Source of the DNA: Candidatus Desulfatibia sp.
GTDB lineage: Bacteria; Desulfobacterota; Desulfobacteria; Desulfobacterales; UBA11574
Assembly: GCF_036446775.1 (NCBI RefSeq)
Contig: NZ_JAZFTO010000255.1
Span: forward strand, 15,737-39,736
Direction of reading: 5' to 3'
Length of the DNA stretch: 24,000 nt
The notes beneath the pieces were generated by a model. That model did not search any database, had not been told where the DNA came from, and worked only from the letters and a program-made list of their open reading frames with translations. The translations under genes and the position numbers were made by a program. Positions within the stretch are counted from its first letter, which is position 1, and the number at the start of each line of letters is the position of its first letter. This document shows positions 7,213-20,248 of this stretch, piece by piece.

Positions 7213-7563
7213 TTAAGTTTTTGCGGAAAGATTCTGGGCAGCATCCACCAGGTCTTTGAGCGGGAAAGGTTTTGTGAAAACAACATCAAAGTCGCTAGAG
7301 TTAAGGAACCAGGGTGTTCCGGAAAAACCAATGATGGGGGTAGACGATCTTTTGGAATTGCGGATGTGTTGAACAACGCTAGGGCCATTGACACCCGGCA
7401 TTAGCATATCAGTAATAACCACATCAAAGCGGCCTTCGTCAAACTTTTGGATGCCTTTGAGCCCGTCTGCGGCAGTTTCAACCTCAAAGCCGGCTCTGGT
7501 CAATGCCATTTGAACCACGTCCAGAATCGCTTTTTCGTCATCAATTACTAATATTTGGTGCAT
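7213..7563 (-). CDS. Single-domain response regulator (CheY-like receiver only)
   Basis: 116 aa. It has the acidic pair ILVIDDEK, the phospho-acceptor context DVVITDMLMPG, and the conserved T/S (GFSGT) and K (FTKPF). There is no output domain. Confidence 0.88.
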   Translation of the reverse strand: MHQILVIDDEKAILDVVQMALTRAGFEVETAADGLKGIQKFDEGRFDVVITDMLMPGVNGPSVVQHIRNSKRSSTPIIGFSGTPWFLNSSDFDVVFTKPFPLKDLVDAAQNLSAKT

Positions 7564-8115
7564 GTCTTAACGGATTATAATTAAAATATGACGCACATTA
7601 AAATCACGGTGAGATATGCTTAAAAACTCATTATATCGCAAGTCTCAACAAGTTTTGCAAGAGAGTACAACAAAGTGGTATATCTGTATGAGCTTGACGC
7701 GGCGGCGTCAAGCCTAATGAAACCGGTTTAGCCAGGAGTTCTCGGCGTGTTATCAACAGTTTGTATGTGTTTGATTTAGCAGACTATTTTTTGGCAACGG
7801 TTGCTAACCAACTAAAACCACGATGTTTTTAAAGCGTAATTTTTTGCCAAGCATATCAAACGGTTTTAGCGGAACGGCCAGTTTTGAACAAAAAATGATT
7901 TCTCGCAAAACCTCCTTAAAGCGCTTATTTTCTTTATTTTTCAAAAAAGTTCTTCAGCAAAAACACATTTTTTGCATGTAAACTCACCCAACAGATTGGA
8001 ATTTAAATGCTATAAGTGTTATGTACAGACCTCGTCATTCACCAGATAAAAATGACCGGAGACTGTTATATACTGCGGGATTTCATAAAAATTGGACATC
8101 CGGTCGGTCTGGGTT

Positions 8116-8265
8116 AGGAGGTTCAGCGTTCAGCGTTCAGCCTGCGACGAGCTCAGCCGAGTCGGGTTAATCGCTTCGCGCTTTTTTTCTATAGCATTGA
8201 TTCCATAGGGATAATTAAACGAGAGGATCAACCTCTGAACCTCTGAACCTTTGAACATTGAACCT
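8116..8265. repeat. Composite inverted repeat built from tandem short words (GTTCAGC x3 on the left, TCTGAACC-like x4 on the right)
   Basis: The left arm is aggaGGTTCAGCGTTCAGCGTTCAGcc (8116-8142). The right arm is caaCCTCTGAACCTCTGAACCTTTGAACATTGAACC (8229-8265). GGAGGTTCAG is the reverse complement of CTGAACCTCT in 9 of 10 positions. The central spacer is about 85 bp. Confidence 0.7.
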
Positions 8266-8337
8266 TAGAATGGCAAGGCTTATACCCATTATATACCGCC
8301 TAAAATCATGCTTGATTTTTGTGGGAAACTAGCTATT

Positions 8338-8383
8338 TTAGCCATCTATAGTTTAATTCGTGACTTTTTACGAGATCATCAAG
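8338..8383 (-). repeat. MITE-like intergenic repeat, copy C (46-bp left-end fragment)
   Basis: The reverse complement cttgatgatctcgtaaaaagtcacgaattAaactatagaTggctaa matches 3996-4041 with 2 mismatches. Similarity then stops. Confidence 0.75.
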
Positions 8384-8483
8384 TTGCAGCTGTTCCGCTT
8401 CTCGAAGATCCTGCTACGGGGCGGGGCGGTGCTCGTTCGGTTAGGATGTAGCAAAATAAGGATTTCACCAAAAAAGGTATAAT

Positions 8484-9131
8484 ATGGACGCAGAATTACC
8501 CGCAAGCCTGTTTTTACAGAAATCGGTACGTTGGCTATTTGTTTTTGTCTTGAGTGTTTGTGTGTCAATCCTGGCCCTCAACGCGAAATATGCTAATATT
8601 TCCACGGCAGAGACAAAAAAGGTGACAATTAAGATCAACACCCCCCCATCTGCAGCAAAAAATCTTGCTAAAACCCAGCCGGAATACAGGCCCAGGTCTG
8701 TTTTCGGCAAGAAAGGGGAACATTTATTACATCCGATTATACTGCAAACGGCCAATCGCTATCAGATGGACCCCGCCCTTGTGAATGCTATTGTGATGGC
8801 GGAGTCCGAATATAATCCCAGAGCGGTTTCCAAAAGAGGCGCCCGGGGCCTTATGCAGTTGATGCCCGCCACTGCTGCCGCCCTCGGCGTAAAAGATAGT
8901 TTCAACCCGGAGCAAAATCTTGACGGTGGCGTCAGATATTTTAAACAGCTTGTGAATCGGTTTGACGGAGACATTAAGCTGGCGCTGGCAGCTTACAATG
9001 CCGGCAGCCGAAAGGTCAGGCTTTATCGGGGAGTTCCGCCTTTTAAGGCTACCAAACGCTATATTAAAAAAGTGTTCTTATATTATCAAATCTACAAAGA
9101 TCATATGGCTGAAGCACCTGACAGAGTTTAA
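8484..9131 (+). CDS. Lytic transglycosylase domain protein (SLT/GH23) with N-terminal membrane anchor
   Basis: 215 aa with a hydrophobic N-terminus WLFVFVLSVCVSILAL. SLT motifs are VMAESEYNPRAVSKRGARGLMQLMP and AAYNAG. AAGG lies 7 nt before the ATG. Confidence 0.88.
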   Translation: MDAELPASLFLQKSVRWLFVFVLSVCVSILALNAKYANISTAETKKVTIKINTPPSAAKNLAKTQPEYRPRSVFGKKGEHLLHPIILQTANRYQMDPALVNAIVMAESEYNPRAVSKRGARGLMQLMPATAAALGVKDSFNPEQNLDGGVRYFKQLVNRFDGDIKLALAAYNAGSRKVRLYRGVPPFKATKRYIKKVFLYYQIYKDHMAEAPDRV

Positions 9132-9969: not shown

Positions 9970-10035
9970 ATAAAACTCAAGGATTTCTTTAAAACTGCCG
10001 ATATATTAGTTAGCACGAATTTTCTTGTTTTACAT

Positions 10036-10131
10036 TTTGCTGAAGGGCAAACCTTCCGAAAGGTTGGGACGCAAAGCTTCCGATCTAAGTCCGTTTTAAG
10101 CGGATAAGATAACGGGGTTGCTAAGCTAAAG
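10036..10131 (+). promoter_or_regulatory. c-di-GMP-I (GEMM-I) riboswitch aptamer
   Basis: The sequence GCUGAAGGGCAAACCUUCCGAAAGGUUGGGACGCAAAGCUUCCGAUCUAAGUCCGUUUUAAGCGGAUAAGAUAACGGGGUUGCUAAGC aligns block by block with the remembered Vibrio cholerae Vc2 aptamer. Shared blocks are GGGCAAACC, a GAAA-capped hairpin, GGGACGCAAAGC, UCCG..CUAA and ..ACGGGGUU. P3 pairs as CG-AUCU-aag-UCCG/CGGA-ua-AGAU-aa-CG. Confidence 0.85.
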
Positions 10132-10137
10132 AAATAG

Positions 10138-10170
10138 AAACCCGTTTCTACTCGGAAGCGGGTTTTTTAT
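10138..10170 (+). terminator. Intrinsic terminator forming the riboswitch expression platform
   Basis: AAACCCGTTTC / tactcg / GAAGCGGGTTT forms an 11-bp stem (one G-U pair), followed by a run of six T. It lies 7 nt after the aptamer and 92 nt before the cheD-like ATG. Confidence 0.8.
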
Positions 10171-10261
10171 TCAGATTGAGCAGTGTATACGATTCCAAGA
10201 AAAAAACTCGGCCATCCTCTTTGACCTTAATGCTGGGAAAGGCCCGGTTTTTAGTAAAAAA

Positions 10262-10831
10262 ATGGACAAAAAATTCCTTCAAATTAGTGAATATTATATA
10301 ACAAAAAAACCTATGCTGGTAGGAACGCTGCTGGGGTCATGTGTATCAATATGCCTGTACAATAAGTGCAACGGCCATGCGGCCATGAATCATTTTTTAA
10401 TGCCATCAGCTGTCAGAAAAGCAATGCAAAACAATCCCGGCAAATATGGAGAGAGTTCATGTGAAATGATCATTCGGTCTTTGATGAGCATTGACCCGGA
10501 TGCTTCTCATTATTCTGCCCAGATTTTTGGCGGTGGCAATATGTTTAGCCTGCGTAATTGCATAAGAGATATTGGGGAGCGAAATATAAAAATTGCCGAA
10601 CAGGTGCTGGCAAAACACAAGATACGTATTATTCGCCGAAAAACAGGTGGTACCAAGGGGATGAAAATTTTATTTAACACAGCTAAAAATCAAGTCGATT
10701 GTCGCAAATTAAGTGACACGAAAGATAGCAAAAGACTTCAAATACAATACGAGAAAGCCTTTAAAACGATAGAGGAGATTTTCCTGAAGCAGACTAACAG
10801 GTTCCCCAAAGACTATTTTGCAAAGTCATAG
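10262..10831 (+). CDS. cheD: CheD-like chemoreceptor glutamine deamidase, orphan, with about 30-aa C-terminal extension
   Basis: 189 aa. ISEYYITKKPMLVGTLLGSCVSICLYN..GHAAMNHFLMP..PGKYGE..AQIFGGGNMF..IGERNIKIA..TGGTKGMKILFNTAKNQV aligns with remembered T. maritima CheD. The catalytic Cys (LGSC) and His (NHFLMP) are kept. No other che genes are in the window. Confidence 0.82.
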   Translation: MDKKFLQISEYYITKKPMLVGTLLGSCVSICLYNKCNGHAAMNHFLMPSAVRKAMQNNPGKYGESSCEMIIRSLMSIDPDASHYSAQIFGGGNMFSLRNCIRDIGERNIKIAEQVLAKHKIRIIRRKTGGTKGMKILFNTAKNQVDCRKLSDTKDSKRLQIQYEKAFKTIEEIFLKQTNRFPKDYFAKS

Positions 10832-10866
10832 TTAGCTGAATGGTAACGGTGACAAATCTTGAATAG

Positions 10867-12234
10867 GTACGAGGTCGCGAGACCGTTAGCTATTAACCTG
10901 AAAGGAGATTATTATATCAGTTACCCTTATGGATATGTAGGCAGAGGGCGGGTTCGTGTGGTAACACACGGGCTGAACTTGCCCCGACACGGTACCGAGA
11001 CGGCTCGCAGAATATGCGGGTTTTATCCAGTCAGGGGTGCTGGCCAAAGCCGCAGGCCGTAGCGTTAAGCGAATGGTGCAGCCTCGTAAGATTTGATCGG
11101 GCGGCTATAGCTGGGCCTACGGCTCGGAGAGAGTCCGATTGAGGGATAAACCCTGCAAAGCAGGGATACGCGCCGATCCTCTCTAATCAGGGAGAAGGCC
11201 GGAGCTATCAGGGAAGCAAAGGGCATAAGCACCTGGTAGGGACCCGGGGTGTCGGAGTGGCCTGGAAGTGATGACGGGCAGAACAACATAACCTGCCTTG
11301 AGCGTGGGGCCATACTTCGACCGTGTTTAGGCAGTGAGTTGAAATGCGGAACAGGGGATAGATTTGATGGTGAGGATAATGTGCGGGTTTACGGGGCCCC
11401 CGCTTTAACAAAACCCAAGCGGCAGTCGTTGGGGAACGGTGCGACAACCGGGTAAAGAACTCGAACTGTCCCGAATCATCTTCGGTTTATACACCAGTTG
11501 CATTTCTCTCTGGTAACAGCAAGAAAGCATGCGTGCTCAAGGAGCTATTAACGTAGCGGAATAAAGTTTCTGACTTGCAGTCTAAACTGTCCCATGCAGC
11601 GAAGCAGTCGCTGGATAGGAGATTCGGGGCTTTTTACGATAAGATCTATCGTGAAGATGTTGTATTGGAGGCCTGGAAGCGCGTAAAGGCCAAAAGCAGT
11701 TCTGCGCAATATGGCCTTCAAAGCGTTCGATGGGACGCATCAAGCAGCGAGTACGCGAAGTGGTAGGGCGGCGTTATAGTCTATCGCTGGAAGAGTTGAT
11801 AAAGGAACTGACACCGGCAATAAAGGGTCGGAACAATTATCACAAGGCGACCAGAGCAGTGCTCAAGCGGCTTCGCAAGCTTAATGCGTTTGTCTGTGAA
11901 CGGCTACGAATATTCCTGAAGCGGAAGTACAGTGATCAATCGAGGGGCACCTGGAGAGTCCACGACAATTTAGTCGTTCGGCTGGGATTATACCAGTTCG
12001 GTTAATCATTGTAATTCAACGACAACGGTTACTGATAAACTCATGGCCTCCGGCTCGGAGAGCTTACGGCTCGGAGAGGCAAGGTCGTCGGAGAGTCGTA
12101 CCGGGGAAAACCCGACGTCCGGTTCGACGAGGGGACTAAGGGAAGGAAGGTATGGTAGTCGGACTGAAGCCTACCGGGAAACCGGTGGAACTGCCACCGA
12201 CGCCCATAGCCACTGCACCGAGGTTCTACTCTAC
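10867..12234 (+). mobile_element. Degenerate group II intron (boundaries tentative)
   Basis: It contains remnants of an intron-encoded RT/maturase (11575-12005). Roughly 450-700 nt of GC-rich, stop-riddled, helix-rich sequence lies upstream. A domain-V-like hairpin lies at 12093-12125: GAGUCGUACCGGG-GAAAA-CCCG-AC-GUCCGGUUC, with a 2-nt AC bulge and G-U pairs. The catalytic triad reads AGU rather than AGC, and there is one U-C mismatch. The candidate 5' ends GTACG (10867) and GTGCA (11076) and the 3' end ..CTAC (12234) are guesses. Confidence 0.7.
11575..12005 (+). pseudogene. Group II intron-encoded protein remnant with the RT domain deleted (N-terminal RT0 segment joined to the maturase/X region, frameshifted)
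   Basis: ORF 11575..11766 reads LQSKLSHAAKQSLDRRFGAFYDKIYREDVVLEAWKRVKAKSSSAQ, the typical IEP N-terminus up to the ..VKANxGxxGVDG point. In another frame from about 11709, PSKRSMGRIKQRVREVVGRRYSLSLEELIKELTPAIKGRNNYHK...RLRIFLKRKY..LGLYQF is the post-RT thumb/X region. The ~250 aa in between are missing. An in-frame stop at 11554 removes the usual N-terminal leader. Confidence 0.75.
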
Positions 12235-12389
12235 TGAATAGTGGCATCTTATTCACTATTCAAGACTCGACACCATTTATTTGCACCATTTATTTGCTGT
12301 TGCTATAGCATCTCGGTGAGGGTAATCACCTCAACTATCAAGCTTGCACGACCTTTCACGAAAAAATCCGCAAGTTAATCCCGTCTGGT

Positions 12390-16823: not shown

Positions 16824-17321
16824 ATGAATCACATTACATACAGACCTATCGGAAGTATACGCACTCCTTTTAAAAAGCAAGCAGGAATGCCGATTCAGCC
16901 ATCAGGGGCCAAGGGTGTGCGAGGCACCATCAAAATCAAAAAGGACTATATAGGCGGACTAAAGGATTTGGAAGGCTTTTCTCATCTTGTTTTGATTTAT
17001 CATTTTCATCTGTCAAAAGAATACGATCTAATGGCGACCCCTTTTCTAGACGATCAGCCACGCGGCGTTTTTGCCACCAGGGCGCCCCGGCGACCCAATT
17101 CCATCGGTTTGTCGATAGTTAAGCTTAATGCGGTCGAGGGGGATATCCTTGAAATCGAGAACGTCGATATTGTCGACGGGACGCCACTGCTGGACATAAA
17201 GCCGTATGTACCGGAATTCGATGCCCAGACCGAAGTTAAAACCGGTTGGCTGGCCGAGGTTGATGAACGGGTAAAGCAGGCCAAATCAGATAACAGATTT
17301 AATTCGAATAAAAAGGTGTAA
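16824..17321 (+). CDS. trmO: tRNA (N6-threonylcarbamoyladenosine(37)-N6)-methyltransferase TrmO (TsaA/YaeB family)
   Basis: 165 aa with IGSIRTPF, GLKDLEGFSHLVLIYHFH, GVFATRAPRRPNSIGLSIVKL, VDGTPLLDIKPYVPEFD. Confidence 0.88.
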   Translation: MNHITYRPIGSIRTPFKKQAGMPIQPSGAKGVRGTIKIKKDYIGGLKDLEGFSHLVLIYHFHLSKEYDLMATPFLDDQPRGVFATRAPRRPNSIGLSIVKLNAVEGDILEIENVDIVDGTPLLDIKPYVPEFDAQTEVKTGWLAEVDERVKQAKSDNRFNSNKKV

Positions 17322-17409
17322 AGCAATATTTAAATATGCCGATAATATATTTACAAAGCGTTCGGGCGACACCGTACTCGAATAGATGGGTTCAGGCTCA
17401 ACCGAACAT

Positions 17410-17463: not shown

Positions 17464-18114
17464 TCAAAGATAGCTTTGAATTTTTTCCTTTAGGGACCTT
17501 GTTTTGGCGGTAATGTCGGGGGCCTGGGTGATGGCCGTGACCATAGCCACGCGGCGTGCGCCCTTGGCAAGCACCTGGTCGATGTTGGACTCGGAGATGC
17601 CGCCCATTACTGTAAAAGGCACATCGATTTCAGGACTGATGGCGGCGATAGCCTCCGGGCCCAAAAAGCGCTCTATCCCTTCCTTGGTGCCGGTGGAAAA
17701 TATGGGACCGATATTGATGTAGTCCGCGCCTTCTTTTTGGGCCTGGATCGCCTCCTTAAGGGAGTGGGTGGAGGCGCCGATGAGCAGTTCCGGCGCAATC
17801 TTCCTGACAGCGTTTAAAGGAAAGTCGTCCTGGCCGAGGTGAACACCGTCGGCCTCTACAGCCATGGCAATATCCACGTGATCGTTGATAATTAGCAGAA
17901 CTCCCGCCTTGGTTGTAATTTCCCTGAACTTCAAGGCCAGGTCGTATATTTTTTTGCCGGAATATTCTTTTTCCCGCAGCTGAATGATCCTGGCGCCGCC
18001 CTGAATTACCGCTTTTAAGACCTCCAGATTGGACCTTCCACGGGACAGCCGTTCACAGGTAACAGGGTATAGGTCGACTTGCCTGAACGCGCTTTTTCTT
18101 GCTTCCCGTTTCAT
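17464..18114 (-). CDS. thiE: Thiamine-phosphate synthase
   Basis: 216 aa with DLYPVT, IIQLREKE, LIINDHVDIA, GVHLGQDD, GASTHS, DYINIGPIFSTGTK, MGGI. The start abuts the thiS stop. Confidence 0.9.
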   Translation of the reverse strand: MKREARKSAFRQVDLYPVTCERLSRGRSNLEVLKAVIQGGARIIQLREKEYSGKKIYDLALKFREITTKAGVLLIINDHVDIAMAVEADGVHLGQDDFPLNAVRKIAPELLIGASTHSLKEAIQAQKEGADYINIGPIFSTGTKEGIERFLGPEAIAAISPEIDVPFTVMGGISESNIDQVLAKGARRVAMVTAITQAPDITAKTRSLKEKIQSYL

Positions 18115-18357: not shown

Positions 18358-19470
18358 TTATTGAAGAAAGGCCGCATCCCAGTCTTTCCACACAGGCTCG
18401 TAGCCCTTGGCTCTGATTATTGCGGCAACGTCTTTAGGAGAACGGTGGTCGGCGATATCAAACTGGGCTTCGGCCTGAACTTCATGAGCATAGCCGCCGG
18501 GTGCGGTGCAGGATCCGGCGCTCATGGAAGTTATCCCGATAGGGATCAGGTTGTCCCTGAGATACGCTGACTCGCGGGTAGATAGAACCAGGCCCGCGTC
18601 CGGGAGCAAGAGCCTTAACGCGGTGATAAGCTGGACAAACTGGGCGTCAGAGACCGGATAAGGAGGCTCGTATTCACCGGCTGCGGGCCGCAGGCGCGGG
18701 AAGGAAATGGTGATGTGTGATTTCCAGAAATTGCGCAAAAGATAGCGGGCATGCAGTGCCAGAAAAAATCCTTCTACGCGCCAGTTGTCAAGCCCCAGAA
18801 GAGCGCCGATCCCGATACGGCGAAATCCGGCCTCACCACCTCTTTCCGGTGTCTCCAGCCGCCAGCGGTAGTTGCTCTTGTTGCCGGCCGGATGAACATC
18901 ACGATAGCGCTTTTCATTGTAAGTTTCCTGATAGACGACCAGGCCGTCCACCCCGTTTGTGATGAGATTTTGGTAGTCGACGGTGGGCATGGGATAGAGT
19001 TCGATCGATATGGAGGAAAAACTATGCCGCAATTTTTGCAATATTTTCGTCAGATACTCCATGGTGACGGCCTGCGGCGCCTCTCCGGACACCAGCAATA
19101 TATGACGAAACCCCTGAGAATACAGAAAAGAAGCTTCGGCCTCGGCCTGCTCCAATGCAATTGTCAGGCGGTCGACAGTATTTTGCACATTAAATCCGCA
19201 GTAGACACAAGCATTGGTACATTCGTTGGACAGATAGAGCGGGGCAAACAGACTGATTACCCGACCGAAACGCTGTTGCGTGAGCCGGTGAGCCCTTTGA
19301 GCCATCTCCTCCATGGCCTGTTCCGCAGCTGGAGACAGGAGGCTGATAAATCCATCCATTCCCAGGGATCGAGCTGCAAGCGCCTTGGCCACGTCAGCCG
19401 GGGTGCGGCTCATGATCTGTTTTTCAATCTCTTCCCAACGCAAGCGGCTTATCTTTTCATAAAAACTCAT
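18358..19470 (-). CDS. thiH: 2-iminoacetate synthase ThiH (radical SAM tyrosine lyase)
   Basis: 370 aa with the radical-SAM cluster motif CTNACVYCGF. Length and neighbours fit ThiH. Confidence 0.88.
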   Translation of the reverse strand: MSFYEKISRLRWEEIEKQIMSRTPADVAKALAARSLGMDGFISLLSPAAEQAMEEMAQRAHRLTQQRFGRVISLFAPLYLSNECTNACVYCGFNVQNTVDRLTIALEQAEAEASFLYSQGFRHILLVSGEAPQAVTMEYLTKILQKLRHSFSSISIELYPMPTVDYQNLITNGVDGLVVYQETYNEKRYRDVHPAGNKSNYRWRLETPERGGEAGFRRIGIGALLGLDNWRVEGFFLALHARYLLRNFWKSHITISFPRLRPAAGEYEPPYPVSDAQFVQLITALRLLLPDAGLVLSTRESAYLRDNLIPIGITSMSAGSCTAPGGYAHEVQAEAQFDIADHRSPKDVAAIIRAKGYEPVWKDWDAAFLQ

Positions 19471-19471
19471 A

Positions 19472-20248
19472 TTACGGTTGCCTCAAAAAGCCTGTCAAAG
19501 GGCTGGAGGCTGAGGCTGCCTTCTGGCGGGAGCTGATTCCAGCCAGAAAGGCTTCTCGACCGGCTTCCACCCCTTTTTTGAAGGCCTGTGCCATTAATGC
19601 CGGGTCTGCGGCCACTGCAATGGCTGTATTGACCAGAACGGCATCGGCTCCCATCTCCATGGCTTCGGCAGCGTGGGAGGGTGCTCCCAGGCCGGCATCC
19701 ACCACTACCGGAACATTCGCCATTTCGATGATGATTTCGATGGATTCTCTGGTGTTAATGCCCTGTTTTGAGCCGATGGGTGACCCCAGGGGCATAACCG
19801 TGGCCGTGCCGATATCCTCCAGTCGTTTGGCCAGGATCGGGTCGGCATGGATATAGGGCAGCACCACGAAGTTGTCCTTGACCAGGATTTCGGCGGCCTT
19901 AAGGGTTTCGACGGGATCGGGGAGCAGATAGTGAGGGTCGGGAGTGACCTCCAGCTTGATCCATGGTTCGCAACCGGCTGCCCGTGCCAGGCGGGCCAGT
20001 CTAACCGCTTCTTGGGCATCCCTGGCACCCGAGGTGTTGGGAAGAAGAAGATAACGACTGGTGTCGATGGCATTAAGCAGGTCATCATCGGGATTTTCCA
20101 GATCCACCCTTCTCAAGGCTACGGTGACAACTTCAGAACCCGAGGCCTCTAAGGCCTTTTGCATGACGTTGTTAGAAGAGAATTTTCCGGTACCCATCAG
20201 CAGCCGCGAAGAAAAAGGGCGACCGGCGATAATCAGAGAGTCTTCCAT
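19472..20248 (-). CDS. thiG: Thiazole synthase
   Basis: 258 aa with [20 protein letters not shown] and [11 protein letters not shown], then [31 protein letters not shown]. Confidence 0.92.

Follow-up and report, generated by a model that had tools for sequence, protein, structure and literature searches.

Riboswitches of the GEMM-I class, which respond to cyclic di-GMP (c-di-GMP), have been tied to chemotaxis before: the published list of GEMM targets includes cheW and cheY together with genes for methyl-accepting chemotaxis proteins (MCPs) and Cache domains (Weinberg et al. 2007, Table 2; PMC1950547), and a review repeats that GEMM RNAs control chemotaxis genes (PMC6366702). In the OFF switch Cd1, from the C. 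difficile flgB leader, the aptamer can form alongside the terminator, both being in competition with an antiterminator, whereas in the ON switch pilM the aptamer and the terminator are mutually exclusive (PMC9262584). Bc1, which precedes MCP genes in the Bacillus cereus group, has been reported as ON or dual (PMC11218506). Here we analyze a 24-kb stretch of contig NZ_JAZFTO010000255.1 (hereafter the window) from the metagenome-assembled genome (MAG) of Candidatus Desulfatibia, an uncultured sulfate reducer of the Desulfobacterales (Thermodesulfobacteriota), in which a class-I c-di-GMP aptamer and an intrinsic terminator occupy the ~250-nt leader of a cheD gene. We think it likely that this leader is a transcription-attenuating riboswitch controlling a monocistronic cheD, because an aptamer is followed by an intervening terminator and a competing antiterminator, the residues that we take to be equivalent to G20 and C92 of the Vc2 aptamer are in place, the gene is a genuine cheD with a low ratio of nonsynonymous to synonymous substitution rates (dN/dS), and a homologous leader exists at a related locus. 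The initial annotation had identified the locus correctly, and one more chemotaxis gene is thereby placed under a GEMM-I riboswitch. The targets known earlier are receptors (MCPs), the proteins CheW and CheY, and flagellar operons; CheD, a receptor-modifying enzyme, would now join the chemotaxis genes under direct RNA-level control by c-di-GMP.

A scan of the whole window against Rfam 15 returned exactly two matches at or above the gathering score, RF00059 and the c-di-GMP-I family RF01051. The latter match covers the full model (positions 1-87 of 87; E 3e-12) at twice the gathering score of 35 bits, on the strand of cheD, and its 3' end lies 137 nt before the cheD ATG (Table 1). The alignment preserves the core GGGCAAACC...GAAA...GGGACGCAAAGC, with a GAAA tetraloop (10058-10061) capping the first hairpin and the receptor blocks CUAAG...UAAG in the second; of the 22 model pairs, two are U.U and the other 20 either canonical or G.U. 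An unpaired G, G10046 (model position 11), stands 5' of the G-C/C-G pairs, A10073 is the adenine past the closing pairs, and C10121 is the C past GGGGUUG; from the alignment to the model, we take these three residues to be the equivalents of Vc2 G20, A47 and C92. These residues, the core, the tetraloop and its receptor are common to the window element and Vc2 of Vibrio cholerae, from which the former differs by a tandem U.U in its first hairpin and by its expression platform. The claims in the initial annotation of a well-formed aptamer, of conserved Vc2 blocks and of a G at the position of Vc2 G20 are thus borne out. Judged by sequence, the element passes every check that can be made of an RF01051 member, and c-di-GMP is its presumed ligand. 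The annotation had also argued for c-di-GMP over 3'3'-cGAMP, and the G at 10046 favors c-di-GMP; position 20, with which the corresponding position of Cd1 has been equated, is reported as a selectivity factor and no hard filter (PMC9262584).

Between the aptamer and the gene lies the intrinsic terminator that had been claimed for this leader, a 14-pair hairpin (10136-10167; core CCCGUUUCU/GGAAGCGGG) followed by UUUUUUAUU, which folds at -18.1 kcal/mol alone and is present in the minimum free energy (MFE) structure. It stands entirely 3' of the aptamer, without overlap, and the two are compatible, since they co-fold at -35.0 kcal/mol. The 3' strand of the aptamer, AACGGGGUU (10111-10119), can instead pair with AAACCCGUU (10138-10146), the terminator's 5' arm, to form a predicted antiterminator of eight pairs with one G.A mismatch. 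Helix 10112-10117 : 10141-10146, the core of this antiterminator, is found in the MFE structures of nascent transcripts that end at 10148, 10153 and 10160, where it is accompanied by a non-aptamer helix, 10062-10069 : 10078-10085. This is the layout of Cd1, with a class-I aptamer, a separate intrinsic terminator and an antiterminator that competes with both, and therefore c-di-GMP most likely represses cheD; we hold this direction with moderate confidence, because it is read from equilibrium folding and from an antiterminator of modest stability. The description of the riboswitch as driving cheD thus probably had the direction wrong. The locus differs from Cd1 in that it belongs to another phylum, that it precedes a single cheD instead of a large flagellar operon, and that its behavior is modeled.

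We posit that transcription begins 5' of position 10036, possibly from a promoter resembling those of sigma-28 (discussed below), and that the fate of the transcript is decided as the leader emerges. At low c-di-GMP, the strand at 10111-10119 would be free to pair with the terminator arm at 10138-10146, blocking the terminator and permitting read-through into cheD. At high c-di-GMP, the ligand would lock the aptamer and hold that strand, the hairpin and its U-run would form, and RNA polymerase would halt ~95 nt before the cheD start codon. CheD would then be made chiefly in the low-c-di-GMP, motile state. The enzyme, a Cys/His amidohydrolase by homology, would deamidate Gln to Glu at the adaptation sites of MCPs and may demethylate them as well. 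Repression of motility and chemotaxis by high c-di-GMP is a known pattern, into which this model fits, and a specialist would not be surprised by it. The compact monocistronic unit of aptamer, terminator and enzyme gene would be a handy test case for c-di-GMP tuning of sensory adaptation.

The identity of the gene is secure. Its 189-residue product, which is 100% identical to a protein encoded on a 39.8-kb contig of a 'Candidatus Desulfatibia sp.' MAG, matches Pfam CheD (PF03975) at 78.7 bits (cutoff, 25 bits) over positions 2-107 of the 108-position profile, as the initial annotation had predicted, and aligns with Thermotoga maritima CheD (PDB 2f9z_C) over residues 3-151 (E 3e-17; about 28% identity). 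An AlphaFold2 (AF2) model (pLDDT 85, pTM 0.81) retrieves the same chain as its best PDB match in Foldseek (E 4e-14; TM 0.81, normalized to the target). The catalytic Cys and His that the annotation had called conserved are Cys27 and His44, which together with Thr22 are invariant across 19 relatives and align with their counterparts in 2f9z_C; we take the three to correspond to T21, C27 and H44 of the T. maritima catalytic site. In family, fold and these residues the protein thus resembles CheD of T. maritima (2F9Z) and Bacillus subtilis, from which it is set apart by its low identity, by the absence of an adjacent cheC or che operon, and by an extra C-terminal tail. This tail had been noticed earlier at about 30 residues; it is real and comprises the 38 residues past the end of the T. 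maritima alignment, predicted by AF2 to form one long helix (residues 153-179) that is conserved in the clade. All nine NCBIfam CheD equivalogs score below their cutoffs (the best, NF010013, at 105.2 versus 223 bits), so the protein is a divergent family member outside any curated orthologue group. With dN/dS between 0.16 and 0.22 in all pairwise comparisons, those with the window included, cheD appears to be functional and under purifying selection, and we reject the idea that it is a decaying, pseudogene-like remnant. That the window CheD deamidates MCPs, and perhaps demethylates them, is likely by analogy with its homologs.

The gene stands apart from any chemotaxis operon. Among all large open reading frames (ORFs) of the 24 kb, scanned against Pfam and NCBIfam, there is no other che gene, and tblastn searches of the window with the CheW, two CheRs, PilZ protein and PAS kinase encoded at related loci gave no match; the earlier statement that no other che genes surround cheD is accurate for the window. 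The only signalling gene besides cheD is an ORF encoding a lone receiver (REC) domain (7213-7563, minus strand); we considered it as a candidate CheY, yet it has only generic receiver matches, with no CheY equivalog among the top ones. The description of cheD as a stand-alone gene holds at this locus and fails for its closest relatives. With 42 matches, 10 of them at least 60% identical, the CheD clade is a small one, and in relatives 61-85% identical to the window protein, where flanks are available, cheD usually belongs to clusters of the order cheW-cheR-cheD-cheR-PilZ-kinase. CheW and CheR neighbors of cheD occur at loci L082, L084, L087, L092 and L102; cheR is directly 5' of cheD in L082, L087/L088 and L102; and L083 and L092 run on from cheD through cheR and a PilZ gene to a PAS-HisKA-HATPase kinase. 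The only relative that lacks che neighbors, like the window, is L081 (60% identity), and it has no riboswitch.

One of these clusters shares the riboswitch. In L084, an RF01051 aptamer at the threshold (35.2 bits) is followed by cheW, cheR, a cheD whose product is 85% identical to that of the window, and a second cheR. The 5' half of the window aptamer (10035-10081) is 85% identical over 47 nt to positions 377-422 of L084, including the flank UUUUGCUGAAG, which varies within the family, and this similarity in a poorly conserved segment suggests a common origin of the two leaders. Otherwise, the homology that links the window to the related loci at the DNA level coincides exactly with the cheD ORF: in blastn and tblastn comparisons it begins at the ATG and stops 3 nt past the stop codon (10262-10834; 83-88% identity). 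We considered whether the window leader arose from an L084-type operon by deletion of cheW and cheR; the window holds no remnants of cheW, cheR, PilZ or kinase genes, a result that neither favors nor refutes this origin. The riboswitch is not a general feature of CheD genes (no match in 37 Rfam-scanned loci) or of near-identical cheW cassettes (no RF01051 in L102-L106 and L111), and a prefilter of 101 loci (947 kb) with a GEMM-I core pattern retained the window and L084 only. Conservation of the pairing at orthologous loci, which the initial annotation had raised, is thus confined to the aptamer of L084, with none elsewhere among the 101 loci. From this distribution, the riboswitch-cheD pairing appears to be a narrow lineage feature, and the stand-alone placement appears peculiar to the genome of the window.

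Table 1. Features of the cheD locus, in window coordinates
Feature	Position	Strand	Basis
Candidate sigma-28 (FliA)-type promoter	9975-10004	+	sequence reading, post hoc; inference only
Class-I c-di-GMP (GEMM-I) aptamer	10036-10125	+	RF01051, 70.5 bits
Predicted antiterminator	10111-10146	+	thermodynamic model only
Intrinsic terminator, 14-pair hairpin and U6 run	10136-10168	+	consensus scan, MFE folds
Second, weak terminator-like hairpin GCUGGG-AAAGG-CCCGGU followed by UUUUU	10232-10253	+	consensus scan
cheD homologue, 189 aa: core residues 1-151 and C-terminal helix 153-179	10262-10831	+	Pfam, PDB, AF2

Several observations weigh against a working attenuator that represses cheD. The tandem U.U (10054/10055 versus 10064/10065) falls within the 6-bp stem below the tetraloop, at positions that are Watson-Crick paired in L084 and Vc2. 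The riboswitch is known from two loci only, it has no lineage-specific covariation support, and the L084 copy, in which the second hairpin is poorly paired, scores at the threshold. The window shows no gene for an MCP, CheA or a flagellar protein that could partner CheD, and the ATG at 10262 is not preceded by an evident Shine-Dalgarno sequence. By itself the antiterminator, which includes a G.A mismatch, reaches a modest -6.2 kcal/mol, and the full-length leader at equilibrium always folds with the terminator, so regulation would depend on co-transcriptional kinetics. The target gene is a poor guide to the direction of the switch, as Bc1 illustrates: this GEMM-I element before MCP genes, with a long expression platform and two terminators, turned its reporter on (PMC11218506). 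The same parts could act as an ON switch in the window, which also has a second terminator-like hairpin (10232-10253); c-di-GMP would then promote read-through, and CheD made at high c-di-GMP would remodel or silence chemoreceptors on the way to sessility. We regard this as unlikely, since the terminator lies outside the aptamer and is not excluded by the bound form, the sole competing helix found uses the aptamer's own 3' strand, as in the OFF logic of Cd1 (PMC9262584), and we found no alternative pairing through which a bound aptamer would disrupt the terminator. A different reading of some of the same facts is that the riboswitch is inactive or decaying, the leader being a constitutive attenuator and cheD unresponsive to c-di-GMP. 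The tandem U.U, the degraded second hairpin of the L084 aptamer (35.2 bits), the decay of the module elsewhere (an in-frame stop codon in L084 cheW, the shortened cheR of L083 and a partial CheD at L085) and a homology that ends exactly at the cheD borders, suggestive of a rearranged locus, all point that way. Against it, the window element scores 70.5 bits, far above the level of a decaying element, with its ligand-contact and tertiary-contact positions intact; the matched terminator and antiterminator are intact too; cheD is under purifying selection; and tandem U.U pairs are among the better-tolerated internal mismatches. A relic is accordingly improbable in our estimation.

The remaining alternatives leave the switch in place and change what it senses or what it serves. 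The host is a member of the former Deltaproteobacteria, in which GEMM-Ib variants occur (as in Geobacter), and the aptamer could be one of these or promiscuous, sensing 3'3'-cGAMP instead of discriminating for c-di-GMP; such riboswitches share the fold and the Rfam family and were first annotated as c-di-GMP sensors, and position 20 does not separate the two classes strictly (PMC9262584). GEMM-Ib riboswitches, however, have A20, and the pilM terminator is exclusive with its aptamer (PMC9262584), whereas the window has a G and a compatible terminator. The window further has a C at the position that corresponds, by our assignment, to C92 and its G at the one corresponding to G20, not the A typical of GEMM-Ib. 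Relatives of the module also encode PilZ, a receptor domain for c-di-GMP, and cGAMP sensing strikes us as very improbable. CheD, for its part, may act outside flagellar chemotaxis, modifying another target within a CheR/CheD/PilZ/PAS-kinase module that belongs to an alternative cellular function pathway. Its scores below every NCBIfam CheD cutoff (105 versus 223 bits at best), its clade-specific C-terminal helix, the neighbors of its relatives (two CheRs, PilZ and a PAS-HisKA kinase were seen there, but neither CheA nor CheY nor an MCP) and the CheD-REC fusions that are its next-closest relatives, one of them between glycosyltransferases, would be in keeping with such a role. Yet the protein has the catalytic triad and the fold of receptor deamidases, neighboring CheW and CheR point to substrates of the MCP type, a CheA-like gene precedes one of the CheD-REC fusions, and the contigs of the relatives are too short to exclude nearby MCP or CheA genes; we give the non-flagellar role only slight credence. 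A c-di-GMP-responsive attenuator that serves chemoreceptor modification thus remains our preferred interpretation.

The promoter of this unit is a lead at best. The sigma-28 consensus is TCTAAAG / TAAAGTTT-N11-GCCGATAA (PMC12784957, PMC7286023); ~32 nt 5' of the aptamer, the candidate combines ACTCAAG (9975-9981), N15 and GCCGATAT (9997-10004). The match is weak overall and was spotted post hoc: 12 of 16 bases agree and the spacing is one base too long, with 7/8 consensus bases in the -10 element GCCGATAT and 5/8 (TCAAGGAT) or 5/7 (ACTCAAG) in the -35 element. The combination CAAG-N13-17-GCCGATA, expected 0.10 times per window, occurs once, at this site, although the octamer GCCGATAW is commoner in the window than expected (6 versus 1.8). 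The aligned position of L084 reads TAAAGTTT-N12-ACCGAATA, and a scan for sigma-70 promoters found no plus-strand site 5' of the aptamer. If used, the sigma-28-like site would place cheD in the late flagellar regulon. Another site on the plus strand, TAAAGCAA-N11-GCCGATAA at 17319-17345, resembles the sigma-28 consensus more closely than the candidate near the aptamer does; this site lies just past trmO and points antisense into thiE. At the other end of the leader, just 5' of the cheD start codon, the second hairpin listed in Table 1 is of uncertain function; terminator-like sites in the region (4 versus 2.2 after shuffling) do not exceed expectation. A hairpin flanked by an A-run and a U-run within 10196-10254 appears terminator-like on both strands in the consensus scan (10232-10248, plus; 10226-10210, minus).

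The pairing of cheD with a c-di-GMP riboswitch had been presented as undescribed, and we found none in the searchable literature or in published GEMM gene lists; GEMM control of che genes as such is known (PMC1950547, PMC11218506), so the novelty is limited to cheD as the target. Of the three papers that contain both terms, none has a title about c-di-GMP riboswitches, and in PMC3543383 the terms stand in passages unconnected with each other. Like Bc1 and the GEMM targets of Weinberg and colleagues, the window has a GEMM-I element in the 5' untranslated region of a chemotaxis gene, and Bc1 likewise has more than one terminator-like hairpin; those elements regulate a receptor or a coupling protein, whereas this one precedes the gene of a receptor-modifying enzyme. 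The module of the relatives may be a more interesting point than the window locus itself, as it appears to be tied to c-di-GMP twice. Small PilZ-domain proteins are encoded directly 3' of cheR in L083 (1047-1412) and L092 (1694-1948). In Pseudomonas aeruginosa, the PilZ protein MapZ reportedly acts with CheR1 in a protein-level c-di-GMP control of chemoreceptor methylation, and the juxtaposition of PilZ and cheR recalls that pair as a second link of the module to c-di-GMP. Both systems would tie c-di-GMP to covalent modification of chemoreceptors, with CheR encoded beside PilZ in relatives of the module; in the window, which has no PilZ gene, the coupling would instead operate at the RNA level and on a deamidase gene. 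In the Desulfobacterales module of CheW, two CheRs, CheD, PilZ and a PAS kinase, c-di-GMP may thus act on receptor adaptation via both a riboswitch and PilZ. A bolder extension, which we offer as speculation with a low chance of being right, is that this is a dedicated module in which c-di-GMP sets chemoreceptor modification at two levels, through a riboswitch on cheW-cheR-cheD-cheR or on cheD alone and through a MapZ-like PilZ protein beside CheR. The tailed CheD would then be the deamidase/demethylase of the module, replacing CheB, the riboswitch-cheD unit would be its minimal retained core, and CheD dosage would be the step at which c-di-GMP control matters most.

Some copies of the related che module show signs of decay in their metagenome contigs, for which sequencing error is a possible explanation. 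The cheW of L084 (611-1165) is broken by one in-frame TAA at a position that is Tyr in CheW proteins (LADEE*DISILK); in L083 (702-977), the cheR 3' of cheD is cut to a 91-residue N-domain, though the CheD of this locus is identical to that of L084; and in L085 (424-687) an 87-residue CheD C-terminal fragment precedes cheD. The next-nearest relatives of the window protein are CheD-REC fusions of 306-331 residues (P0012, P0013, P0015, P0016, P0020, P0032 and P0033; loci L090, L093 and L095), some of them labeled 'CheB' by JGI (the Joint Genome Institute). The fusion in L095 follows a CheA-like gene, and that in L090 lies between glycosyltransferase genes. These fusions may be CheB analogues built on the CheD catalytic domain. 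We considered the CheD tail as a relic of their REC domain; MAFFT set FLKQTNRFPK against FLKKLSKYLPK, and BLASTP gave no alignment even at E 100, so we reject this derivation. The searches also collected more than 100 CheW proteins of 170 residues (P0043-P0162; L103-L111), mutually 87-96% identical. At least two copies of their cassettes occur in one MAG (GCA_032127815.1), and an MCP gene is usually next, giving the look of a multi-copy cheW-mcp element.

The rest of the window is largely housekeeping. It encodes an EngB-like GTPase, an aminotransferase, HisG, HisI, PBP1A, an SLT transglycosylase and an FMN reductase, along with YnfA, Lnt, a MOT1-type transporter, TrmO, a KAS gene product and a DEAD-box helicase. 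The REC-only gene is separated from that of the SLT transglycosylase by about 900 nt (7564-8483) with no ORF of at least 60 codons wholly inside and no Rfam match at the gathering score; the only two such ORFs that reach into it (8368-8568 and 8465-8755, both on the minus strand) straddle its 3' edge. A probable ORF-degenerate group II intron (~10850-12240) directly follows the cheD stop codon, in the same orientation as the gene, and the homology to related cheD loci stops near its 5' edge, at 10834. Its Rfam matches are sub-threshold but fall in the right order on the right strand (group-II-D1D4-4, 10899-11067, 19.6 bits; domain V/VI, 12091-12234, 21.7 bits), and between them an ORF resembling the N-terminus of a reverse transcriptase (11575-11766) adjoins one with a GIIM maturase domain (11730-12005; Pfam E 2.7e-10), the reverse transcriptase domain itself being missing. 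The second Rfam match of the window, a thiamine pyrophosphate (TPP) riboswitch (RF00059; 20324-20419, minus strand; 66 bits versus a gathering score of 54.3), heads an operon of thiG (19472-20248), a thiH-like radical SAM gene (18358-19470) and thiE (17464-18114).

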